Shown: positions 23,687 through 24,997 of the stretch, piece after piece | Numbering within the stretch: position 1 is the first letter of the stretch | How the letters are laid out: each line of letters opens with the position of its first letter | From: Shigella phage ESh21 | DNA: 64,000 bases | Sequence record: ON528731 | Direction: 5' to 3' (one strand) | The notes under the pieces: model-generated | Database searches by the model: none | Seen by the model: only the letters and a program-made list of their open reading frames with translations | What the model was told of the DNA's origin: nothing | Translations under genes and position numbers: made by a program

Positions 23687-23764
23687 GGGAGATTGACGGT
23701 AATTGGTAAACCTACCATCCTTAGAAGTTGGTGTTTGAGGGTTCGAATCCCTTGTCTCCCACCA
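23687..23764 (+). tRNA. tRNA with anticodon UAG (Leu by anticodon), short variable arm
   Basis: Loop CTTAGAA; anticodon stem identical to the Val(UAC) tRNA at 24188; acceptor GGGAGAT/GTCTCCC. Confidence 0.5.
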
Positions 23765-23771
23765 AATTAGT

Positions 23772-23847
23772 GCAGGTGTAGCAAAATGGTTATGCGGCTG
23801 ACTCTTAATCAGTAAGATGATGGGTTCAATTCCCTCCACCTGTACCA
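23772..23847 (+). tRNA. tRNA-Lys (anticodon CUU)
   Basis: Loop CTCTTAA; paralog of the Lys(UUU) tRNA at 22551. Confidence 0.6.
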
Positions 23848-23853
23848 AATATC

Positions 23854-23929
23854 GGGGATGTAGTTTACATGGTTAAAACATAAGTTTTGCAAACTTAAGT
23901 ACAGGGTTCAATTCCCTGCTTCTCCACCA
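23854..23929 (+). tRNA. tRNA-Ala (anticodon UGC)
   Basis: Anticodon stem TAAGT/ACTTA, loop TTTGCAA; G3:U70 wobble pair in acceptor stem. Confidence 0.65.
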
Positions 23930-23935
23930 ATTAGT

Positions 23936-24010
23936 GCATCCATAGTTTAAACGGGAAAATTACAGTCTTCCAAACTGAGGTTGAGGGTTCGATTCCCTCT
24001 GGATGCTCCA
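23936..24010 (+). tRNA. tRNA-Gly (anticodon UCC)
   Basis: Acceptor GCATCCA/TGGATGC perfect, loop CTTCCAA. Confidence 0.65.
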
Positions 24011-24016
24011 AATAAT

Positions 24017-24093
24017 GCTGCTTTCGTATAATTGGCTATTACACATCCCTTGTAAGGATGGAGATGCGGGTTCAAGTCCTGTGAGCAGCACCA
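24017..24093 (+). tRNA. tRNA-Thr (anticodon UGU)
   Basis: Anticodon stem CATCC/GGATG, loop CTTGTAA. Confidence 0.65.
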
Positions 24094-24187
24094 ATTTGAG
24101 GTCAAGTGAAAGACCGCTTGAGTCAACTGAAGACCGTAACAAATTCCACGGAGTTGAGTTAGCGGCACAACTTCAGACCTCTTTAAA

Positions 24188-24262
24188 GCTCGCTTAGTTT
24201 ATATGGTAAAGCCCCATCCTTACAAGTTGGTGAAGAAGGTTCAAGTCCTTCAGCGAGTACCA
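24188..24262 (+). tRNA. tRNA-Val (anticodon UAC)
   Basis: Loop CTTACAA, T-arm GAAGG-TTCAAGT-CCTTC. Confidence 0.6.
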
Positions 24263-24263
24263 A

Positions 24264-24341
24264 GTTCCAGTATCCCAATTGGCAGAGGATGCAAGCTCAA
24301 ACCTTGTATTAGTGACGGTTCGAATCCGTCTTGGAACACCA
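24264..24341 (+). tRNA. tRNA with anticodon CAA (Leu by anticodon), short variable arm
   Basis: Loop CTCAAAC, T-arm GACGG-TTCGAAT-CCGTC, acceptor GTTCCAG/TTGGAAC. Confidence 0.5.
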
Positions 24342-24356
24342 AATTAGGAGATTCCT

Positions 24357-24569
24357 ATGAAGCCTTATGGTAGACATGGTAAAGTTGAAATTGCAAGTTG
24401 TGGTTGCTGTGCTTCTCACGATGGTGAAGAAGATTACTACAAGTGGCGTACAGACCATCGTAGACGCTTTCTCAGAAGAGATAAGAAGAAAGCTAGACAG
24501 GAATCTCGAAATAATATTGCAGAATTAGTTCAAACGGATAGAGCAGCAGCCTACGAAGTTGTTTGTTAG
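24357..24569 (+). CDS. Small basic Cys-containing ORF whose 3' end overlaps tRNA-Arg
   Basis: AGGAG SD 7 nt upstream of ATG; last ~17 codons lie within the tRNA. Confidence 0.3.
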   Translation: MKPYGRHGKVEIASCGCCASHDGEEDYYKWRTDHRRRFLRRDKKKARQESRNNIAELVQTDRAAAYEVVC

Positions 24570-24595
24570 GGGTTCGAATCCCTTATTCTGCACCA
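24519..24595 (+). tRNA. tRNA-Arg (anticodon ACG)
   Basis: Acceptor GCAGAAT/ATTCTGC perfect, loop CTACGAA. Confidence 0.65.
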
Positions 24596-24614
24596 ATTAC
24601 TAGAAGGTAATTAT

Positions 24615-24842
24615 ATGCGTAAACTCATTATTGAAAAGCATAAAGATGCTGACAAGATTGAAACAACACAAGTTGGGGACACTGACTTCATTCTTGTAGG
24701 TTGGAAATGTGACCCAATAGCAGCTATGAAGGTTGTTCATGGTTTTGCAGGAATTGAATTTAATCAAATCATATTTGAAACGCTATTACCAGAAAATCAG
24801 GATACGTGTAATAACGCATATGTCCTGACAAGAGTTCGTTAG
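24615..24842 (+). CDS. Hypothetical protein inside tRNA array
   Basis: ORF between two tRNAs with plausible SD; stop overlaps start of next tRNA. Confidence 0.4.
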   Translation: MRKLIIEKHKDADKIETTQVGDTDFILVGWKCDPIAAMKVVHGFAGIEFNQIIFETLLPENQDTCNNAYVLTRVR

Positions 24843-24916
24843 GGGATTAGTTTACAAGGTTAAAACCTCGGTCTTTGAAATCGAAGAAGTTGGTTCAATT
24901 CCAACATCCCCCGCCA
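24841..24916 (+). tRNA. tRNA-Gln (anticodon UUG)
   Basis: Loop CTTTGAA, T-arm GTTGG-TTCAATT-CCAAC, D-arm GTTT/AAAC. Confidence 0.6.
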
Positions 24917-24918
24917 AT

Positions 24919-24997
24919 ACTCCATTACTCCAATTGGCAGAGAGGCCAGACTTAAAATCTGTGTTATGTATCGGTTCGAATCCGATATGGAGTACCA
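24919..24997 (+). tRNA. tRNA with anticodon UAA (Leu by anticodon), short variable arm
   Basis: Acceptor ACTCCAT/ATGGAGT perfect, loop CTTAAAA, 79 nt. Confidence 0.5.

Follow-up and report, generated by a model that had tools for sequence, protein, structure and literature searches.

We identify three tRNA genes in Shigella phage ESh21 (sequence record ON528731) that carry leucine anticodons on bodies without a long variable arm. They lie in a tRNA cluster within the 64,000-nucleotide stretch of DNA that we analyzed (hereafter the window). These are very probably functional type I tRNA-Leu genes, with products that would be charged with leucine by the host leucyl-tRNA synthetase (LeuRS) and would decode leucine codons, as members of an old family of phages and Actinomycetota. 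The three genes are:

23687–23764, plus strand: type I tRNA-Leu(UAG), 78 nt including CCA, called by ARAGORN, Rfam RF00005 score 38.9 bits
24264–24341, plus strand: type I tRNA-Leu(CAA), 78 nt, called by ARAGORN, Rfam RF00005 score 44.0 bits
24919–24997, plus strand: type I tRNA-Leu(UAA), 79 nt, called by ARAGORN, Rfam RF00005 score 48.3 bits

ARAGORN places the genes at exactly these coordinates, in agreement with the first-pass annotation, which had reported leucine-anticodon tRNAs of 78 to 79 nt with variable regions of 5 to 7 nt at 23687, 24264, and 24919 (the RF00005 gathering score is 29 bits). In each gene the acceptor stem spans 7 bp, A73 is present, and CCA is encoded; U8, A14, G18G19, U33, and the T loop are all preserved. 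The variable regions, UGUUU in Leu(UAG) (5 nt), AUUAGU in Leu(CAA) (6 nt), and GUUAUGU in Leu(UAA) (7 nt), are free of any helix and fall within the type I range of 4 to 7 nt. The anticodon loops are 7 nt long with U33 (CUUAGAA, CUCAAAC, and CUUAAAA, respectively). That such short arms depart from the bacterial norm for leucine, as had been pointed out, is confirmed by the hosts' own Leu tRNAs, all of which are type II and 85 to 87 nt long. We rejected the possibility that the three are canonical type II tRNA-Leu, because their variable regions of 5 to 7 nt compare with 13 to 15 nt in all E. coli (Escherichia coli) K-12 Leu genes and there is no alternative fold. We also rejected a long arm hidden by misplaced gene boundaries: acceptor stem, A73, and CCA bound each gene, and neighboring tRNAs lie only 1 to 7 nt away. 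No fold with a long arm emerged from ARAGORN, segment parsing, or minimum free energy (MFE) folding. The MFE folds of the three genes held no long variable hairpin, although such folding is uninformative here (Z-scores of −1.1 to −1.8), recovering the cloverleaf only in part, as is usual for AT-rich tRNAs.

Two of the genes also have the D arm typical of leucine tRNAs, with a 3-bp stem, a non–Watson-Crick 13.22 pair, and the series A14 A15 Y Y G18 G19 Y A20a N A22. The D arm is UCC-CAAUUGGCAGA-GGA in Leu(CAA), with C13.A22, and CUC-CAAUUGGCAGA-GAG in Leu(UAA). Leu(UAG) is the least regular of the three. It has the D-loop motif, yet its D region (23694–23714) is 21 nt rather than the usual 20. 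Relative to its homologues in T5 and phage SSE121, which do fit the Leu-type D arm, it has a U inserted after G13 and an A24-to-C change. These two changes move the D stem by one position (G-C, G-C, U-A), turn 13-22 into U-A, and leave a 3-nt connector between acceptor stem and D stem. Infernal and ARAGORN place the extra base differently. The anticodon stem of Leu(UAG), CCAUC/GUUGG, contains a U30.U40 mismatch.

Leucine identity is supported by the determinants of the host enzyme. The E. coli LeuRS identity set comprises A73, A14, the A15-U48 Levitt pair, G18G19, A20a, and D/T-loop contacts including U54-A58; neither the anticodon nor the long arm is reported to be crucial, and variants lacking the arm are still active (PMC9976931, PMC6614811). 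We found every one of these elements in Leu(UAG), Leu(CAA), and Leu(UAA), together with U8-A14, a TTCGAAT T loop, and U48 as the last nucleotide of the variable region. In Leu(CAA) and Leu(UAA), positions 8 to 26 are arranged over 20 nt just as in E. coli tRNA-Leu (3-bp stem and N13.A22). Host LeuRS would thus read A73 and the elbow where D and T loops meet, rather than the anticodon or a long arm. The tRNAscan-SE isotype scoring proposed as a check has in part been published, for phage Sf14. Version 2.0 puts leucine first for Leu_CAA (49.1, next 36.1) and for Leu_TAA (60.2, next 54.2) (PMC12482277). Because the Leu_TAG of Sf14 is a different allele from the UAG gene of the window, its score does not apply here.

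Whole-body similarity points the same way. We compared each tRNA, with its anticodon masked and its variable region removed, with 1750 viral tRNAs, 18% of them Leu. Leu tRNAs made up 9 of the 20 nearest neighbors of Leu(UAG), 13 of those of Leu(CAA), and 10 of those of Leu(UAA), against 0 to 4 for the other 22 tRNAs of the window; the way in which the reference set was collected had enriched it for type I Leu, which tempers this result. A smaller comparison, drawn from the window, T5-like phages, SSE121, phiEa21-4, and a handful of E. coli tRNAs, had little power to discriminate outside the UAG homologues. Support of another kind comes from the T5 group. The depositors of its tRNA record (GenBank AJ604531) state that tRNAL2, when given a CUA anticodon, is an effective amber suppressor, and that the Lys and Pro tRNAs could not be converted. 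A working suppressor means that tRNAL2 is charged in E. coli whatever its anticodon, and the difference from Lys and Pro is the pattern expected of a substrate of an anticodon-blind synthetase.

The three anticodons suit the codons that the phage uses. In 39 long open reading frames (ORFs) of the window, leucine is encoded by CTT (28%), TTA (25%), TTG (18%), CTG (14%), CTA (10%), and CTC (5%), and TTA, TTG, and CTA thus account for 53% of leucine codons in a genome with a GC content of 39%. E. coli, by contrast, strongly favors CTG. The UAA and CAA tRNAs would decode UUA and UUG, and the UAG tRNA would decode CUA or CUN, all of them codons used far more than is generally reported for E. coli. 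Given this heavy use, the three anticodons serve codons that the phage needs, and mischarging would harm its own proteins.

Several further points weigh against leucine identity or against a regular function. A73 and A15-U48 are also present in many other tRNAs of the cluster, and so are necessary elements rather than discriminating ones. The window's UAG allele is without a published isotype score and scores low in Rfam, and its D region is atypical, being one nucleotide longer than usual with its stem out of register (a shift that Infernal prefers to assign to the acceptor stem). E. coli LeuRS was unable to leucylate the type I tRNA-Leu(CAA) of Streptomyces coelicolor, and has been described as charging type II only, with an LSD that favors a large variable loop (PMC6614811). 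This failure conflicts both with the minimal-substrate work cited in PMC9976931 and with the T5 suppressor. It leaves some uncertainty about identity, and to that extent the doubt raised in the first-pass annotation stands; the identity elements, isotype scores, and neighbor test nevertheless favor leucine. Host LeuRS most likely charges all three tRNAs, as judged from their sequences. The doubt over identity is largely resolved, and the tRNA-Leu annotation should stand.

The genes are strongly conserved among related phages. Leu(CAA) is 96 to 100% identical in approximately 250 Ounavirinae records and Leu(UAA) at least 95% identical in approximately 250 records; their relatives, in Felixounavirus and Mooglevirus genomes, are labeled tRNA-Leu. 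All three Leu genes are kept in more than 250 phage genomes. Leu(CAA) is identical to the gene of Sf14, from which Leu(UAA) differs by 2 nt. More distantly, three Leu tRNAs of 77 to 78 nt in Erwinia phage phiEa21-4 (Kolesnikvirus), with anticodons CAA, AAG, and UAA, are armless, and all have A73 and the D arm CCC-AAYUGGCAGA-GG. Salmonella phage Si3 (L002 4001–4079; L031) carries a fused gene: Leu(CAA) contributes its 5' half, Leu(UAA) its 3' half, and they are joined at the D arm common to both. The intervening stretch is deleted and the acceptor stem is not fully paired.

Leu(UAG) has a different history. Across the GenBank loci and 27 relatives from IMG/VR, its position is occupied by one of two unrelated alleles, type A in the window and type B in Sf14 and Moogle. 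The loci in this comparison are:

Window, 23687–23764
L003, 2889–2965
L010, 3841–3917
L011, 4001–4077

The type A allele is 84 to 85% identical to tRNAL1 of the T5 group (GenBank AJ604531; CUA) and 82% identical to Leu(tag) of the Seunavirus phage SSE121. This far exceeds the similarity between other tRNAs of these phages, and implies that the gene has moved horizontally, a single UAG tRNA gene having been exchanged among Ounavirinae, T5-like (Demerecviridae), and Seunavirus phages. The anticodon stem of type A itself varies among relatives, as CCATC/GTTGG, CCTCG/CGAGG, or TCTCG/CGAGA, and the changes are compensatory.

The doubt over Leu(UAG) arose in part from its likeness to another gene of the cluster:

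24188–24262, plus strand: tRNA-Val(UAC), called by ARAGORN, with a patch of approximately 22 nt in common with Leu(UAG)

The observation was correct. Position 36 aside, both tRNAs read CCATC-CTTA[G/C]AA-GTTGG, including U30.U40, and no other of the 300 pairs of window tRNAs has anticodon stems that are identical (the next best pairs agree at 8 of 10 positions). However, the likeness is confined to the patch, CC-N-CCATCCTTA-N-AAGTTGGTG, and the remainder of the two molecules is unrelated. Whole-body similarity between Leu(UAG) and Val(UAC) is 0.64, which is background, as compared with 0.84 between Leu(UAG) and the T5-like Leu(UAG). The Val(UAC) stem is dimorphic among relatives (CCATC/GTTGG or TCACC/GATGA), and its variants are found with those of Leu in every combination. 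In T5 and SSE121, the Leu(UAG) stem (CCGTC/GTCGG) has the same U.U mismatch, which suggests that this stem is the ancestral one for the Leu lineage. The shared sequence is thus a recombination patch of approximately 22 nt, with Leu the probable donor. Being polymorphic among relatives, such a patch is no evidence of a shared amino-acid identity. We also rejected an origin of Leu(UAG) as a Val tRNA with a changed anticodon, because the acceptor, D, and T arms differ, overall similarity is 0.64, and the patch is polymorphic.

Armless Leu tRNAs are common well beyond these phages. We scanned IMG/VR with a pattern of D loop, anticodon loop, short variable region, and T loop, which matched at least 120 loci. 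Across 120 viral loci, ARAGORN called 152 short-arm and 56 long-arm Leu tRNAs, as compared with 1 and 87 for Ser and 0 and 39 for Tyr. Arm loss is thus a specific trait of Leu, and Ser and Tyr almost never show it. Examples include the T5-like tRNAL2 (UUA), Aeromonas phage Akh-2 (CAA and UAA), and Lactobacillus phage LpeD (UAG, UAA, and CAA; D arm UCC-AAUUGGCAGA-GA). Some phages hold both types, such as Xanthomonas phage X1, where an armless CAG tRNA stands beside a type II UAG tRNA. In a second scan of IMG/VR, with the same pattern but any variable length, 89 of the first 120 loci gave long-arm hits only and 31 gave short-arm hits. Roughly one-quarter of the viral loci whose D loop is of the Leu type therefore carry type I Leu, an estimate that depends on one motif and on the order of the scan.

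The same short-arm pattern found armless Leu tRNAs in bacterial genomes, where they made up 84 of the 87 tRNAs among the matches listed. Most of these listed matches were single chromosomal genes of Actinomycetota (Gordonia, Nocardia, Rhodococcus, Mycobacterium, Arthrobacter, Bifidobacterium, Corynebacterium, and Amycolatopsis) with the D arm seen in Ounavirinae; others lay within dense tRNA arrays. Five such arrays on contigs from bacteria or metagenome-assembled genomes (L265, L269, L350, L353, and L357) have 17 to 26 tRNAs in 8 kb, with full sets of type I Leu, and look like tRNA arrays of phages or mobile elements. Pooling phages and bacteria, we obtained 268 unique type I tRNAs with Leu anticodons. 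A73 was present in 265 and U48 in 267 of them, and the search pattern constrained neither position. Variable loops were mostly of 5 nt (229 tRNAs), with 27 of 6 nt and 10 of 7 nt. In the 189 gap-free members with a 5-nt variable loop, 98.3% of cloverleaf positions were paired, as compared with 34 to 47% in slid controls, and there were 1352 double-change cells, as compared with 230 to 318; note that the structures were assigned by ARAGORN, a program that favors pairing. On this sequence evidence, the three window genes belong to an old, coherent type I tRNA-Leu family common to unrelated phages and Actinomycetota.

Decoders of CUN codons in this family mostly carry A37 beside G36. Armless Leu tRNAs with G36 (loci L042–L370 and the window) had A37 in 59 cases and G37 in 32 (45 and 19, respectively, in phages), whereas long-arm viral Leu tRNAs with G36 had G37 in 58 cases and A37 in 27. 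Given how frequent A37 is with G36, many type I CUN decoders are without a G36-G37 site for m1G37.

The closest chromosomal counterparts are the type I tRNA-Leu(CAA) of S. coelicolor and its actinobacterial relatives, which share with the window genes the Leu anticodon, A73, and U48, and have a 5-nt variable loop (PMC6614811). Their D arm, GCCC-AATTGGCAGA-GGC, is essentially identical to that of Ounavirinae, and the Sf14-type Leu(UAG) is approximately 78% identical to actinobacterial chromosomal genes. In S. coelicolor, however, the tRNA is a chromosomal isoacceptor, the LSD of LeuRS is adapted, and A73 is not an identity element (PMC6614811), whereas the window genes are carried by a phage and have to function in enterobacteria that have type II Leu tRNAs only. 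Among coliphages, the 77-nt type I tRNA-Leu1 (CUA) and tRNA-Leu2 (UUA) of T5, BF23, and Salmonella phage 5 (GenBank AJ604531) provide the nearest parallel. Besides its overall identity to the window's Leu(UAG), tRNAL1 has the U30.U40 mismatch, A73, U48, and the GAAUUGGCAUA D loop. The T5 group differs in belonging to Demerecviridae and in its canonical 20-nt D region, as compared with the inserted U and shifted register of the window gene. Leu(CAA) and Leu(UAA) of the window form a sub-lineage apart from the T5 group, with a CCC-AAUUGGCAGA-GG D arm.

The host tRNAs are a more remote comparison. E. coli has type II tRNA-Leu encoded by leuZ (UAA), leuX (CAA), leuW (UAG), leuQPVT (CAG), and leuU (GAG), and so shares the anticodons of the window genes. 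They also share A73, A14, A15-U48, G18G19, A20a, the 3-bp D stem, an 11-nt D loop, and N13.A22. E. coli tRNA-Leu differ, however, in being 85 to 87 nt long with variable arms of 13 to 15 nt, and positions 32, 37, and 38 of the anticodon loop are unlike those of the window. Neither the UAG nor the CAA gene had a blastn match in 5,426 E. coli genomes, which rules out a recent origin from the host or an E. coli prophage but does not inform isotype. Animal mitochondria also have type I tRNA-Leu whose variable loop is short, with A73 and A14 as determinants (PMC9976931). These are served by a dedicated mitochondrial LeuRS and have floppy, AT-rich structures in another compartment, and the likeness is one of structure.

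The restriction of arm loss to leucine matches what the synthetases require. Bacterial TyrRS binds the long arm. More broadly, bacterial SerRS and TyrRS recognize their tRNAs by the arm and LeuRS does not, which probably makes it dispensable in Leu alone. If the arm is lost only where the synthetase has no need of it, Leu should often be armless and Ser and Tyr almost never, as we observe. These rules account for why the loss is permitted, not for why it happened. One suggested cause, which we regard as unlikely, is adaptive: arm loss would let phage tRNA-Leu evade nucleases that recognize host type II tRNAs, whether those of a host defense (e.g., of the Septu/retron PtuAB kind) or of the phage's own shut-off. 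Under this view, anticodon-loop positions 32, 37, and 38 are often altered too, and unrelated families exchange the genes and so keep UUR and CUN decoding alive. Type I Leu is indeed frequent in phages of hosts with type II Leu only, phage loops do differ from those of the host (CUUAGAA versus UUUAGGU, with A37 rather than G37 after G36), and the same tRNA gene has spread across unrelated coliphage families. However, type I Leu is a normal chromosomal gene in Actinomycetota, where no arms race is needed to explain it, some phages retain both Leu types, and neutral loss allowed by the LeuRS rules accounts equally well for the Leu-specific pattern. The nearest experimental parallel is the T5 tRNA-Tyr that resists Retron-Eco7/Septu, a phage class II copy with a variable region unlike that of the host, where the variable loop is a nuclease target (PMC13096335). 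That tRNA keeps its long arm and its protection was shown experimentally (PMC13096335), and the parallel to tRNA-Leu is an analogy only. In the literature, we found no report of a bacterial nuclease aimed at the variable arm of tRNA-Leu. A paper on bacterial Schlafen proteins describes anticodon-arm cleavage without specificity for type II tRNAs, and so lends no support to a role in defense. If the adaptive explanation were true, coliphage type I tRNA-Leu would have to hold some feature that makes an armless tRNA acceptable to E. coli LeuRS, an enzyme reported to charge type II only.

Two other explanations question the function of the tRNAs rather than the history of the arm. It is very improbable that they carry another amino acid or are ambiguous, with the phage recoding or mistranslating UUR and CUA. 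A leucine anticodon on a type I body and the failure of EcLeuRS on one foreign type I tRNA-Leu would both fit, yet the anticodon is a major determinant for most E. coli synthetases, and only LeuRS, SerRS, and AlaRS ignore it. All three window tRNAs lack the G3.U70 pair and the long arm with G73 that could direct them elsewhere. The anticodon arm common to Leu(UAG) and Val(UAC), and the A73 of both, would fit as well, but ValRS requires C36. The Ile2 and Lys isotype scores of Sf14 Leu_TAG do come near its Leu score, whereas the isotype and nearest-neighbor tests overall point to leucine, and the family-wide A73 and U48 signature agrees with the LeuRS rules. Mischarging, moreover, would hit more than half of the leucine codons in the phage's own genes. 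That the three are instead tRNA-like RNAs that do not decode (for example decoys, primers, or pseudogenes in decay) is hardly credible. The Leu genes do have Rfam scores at the low end of the cluster, and Leu(UAG) has its irregular D region and mismatched anticodon stem. T5 encodes several tRNA-like RNAs of unknown function, and Si3 tolerates the fusion-deletion of Leu(CAA) and Leu(UAA). Against this stand the intact 7-nt anticodon loops with U33, the encoded CCA, the canonical T loops, the strong conservation with compensatory stem changes, the exact match of the three anticodons to codons that the phage overuses, and the suppressor activity of the T5 homologue. We therefore rejected a pseudogene or tRNA-like element, given the intact invariant nucleotides, the retention in more than 250 genomes, and the compensatory changes.

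Parts of this picture were already known. Relatives of the window genes are labeled tRNA-Leu in hundreds of records, the T5 versions were deposited long ago, and type I tRNA-Leu had been described in animal mitochondria and S. coelicolor. However, we found no statement in the searchable literature that phages, classic coliphages among them, commonly carry armless tRNA-Leu. An identity review describes Leu and Ser tRNAs as long-armed everywhere except in animal mitochondria (PMC9976931), and the 2019 S. coelicolor paper treats type I tRNA-Leu as exceptional and describes E. coli LeuRS as specific to type II (PMC6614811). We find that armless Leu tRNAs are common in phages, including the classic coliphage groups (Felix O1-like and T5-like). 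Annotators therefore need not flag short-armed Leu genes as suspect. With these tRNAs, the response of a "type II-only" LeuRS to type I substrates can be studied in a natural system. They also raise a testable link to the newly found defense nucleases that cut tRNA variable loops.

The source phage is an Ounavirinae myophage of enterobacteria, similar to Felixounavirus and Mooglevirus. A 2-kb stretch around the Leu genes has matches in 257 phage records, the best of which (90 to 96% identical) are Citrobacter phages BSwM KMM4, HP1, and Moogle and Shigella phages Sf13 to Sf19. A neighboring 244–amino acid protein has an identical copy on an IMG/VR contig. The tRNA cluster is syntenic with those of Sf14, Si3, and phiEa21-4, and is flanked by an ORF with DUF2828 and DUF7788 on one side and the large terminase gene on the other. 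The cluster and its long-armed members, of which the two Ser tRNAs have variable regions of 20 to 21 nt, are:

21465–26200, plus strand: tRNA gene cluster, 25 ARAGORN calls and one Rfam-only call, containing the three Leu genes
21956–22043, plus strand: tRNA-Tyr(GUA), 88 nt, variable region of 15 nt
23350–23439, plus strand: tRNA-Ser(UGA), 90 nt, long arm
26024–26116, plus strand: tRNA-Ser(GCU), 93 nt, long arm

A permissive Rfam scan of the whole cluster yielded nothing beyond tRNAs and subthreshold noise. The Rfam-only call is a 26th tRNA on the plus strand at 21549–21620 (53.7 bits), which ARAGORN missed. Its loop, CCTTCAA, has the anticodon TTC (Glu), with C33 replacing the near-universal U33. 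Directly upstream of the cluster, the DUF2828/DUF7788 ORF (19815–21299, plus strand; 494 amino acids) is syntenic in Sf14 and Si3 and is labeled "RNA-binding protein" in relatives. Two small plus-strand ORFs without a Pfam match lie between tRNA genes. The one at 24357–24569 encodes 70 amino acids, is Cys-rich, and overlaps the 5' 51 nt of tRNA-Arg(ACG); the other, at 24615–24842, encodes 75 amino acids and ends at the first bases of tRNA-Gln(UUG). The Sf14 paper reports isotype-inconsistent scores for approximately half of the cluster tRNAs (PMC12482277). In our anticodon-masked comparison, the Lys(UUU) and Lys(CUU) genes (22551–22626 and 23772–23847) likewise departed from their anticodons: the body of Lys(UUU) is nearest to viral Ser tRNAs (11 of 20 neighbors), and just 3 of the 20 nearest neighbors of Lys(CUU) are Lys.

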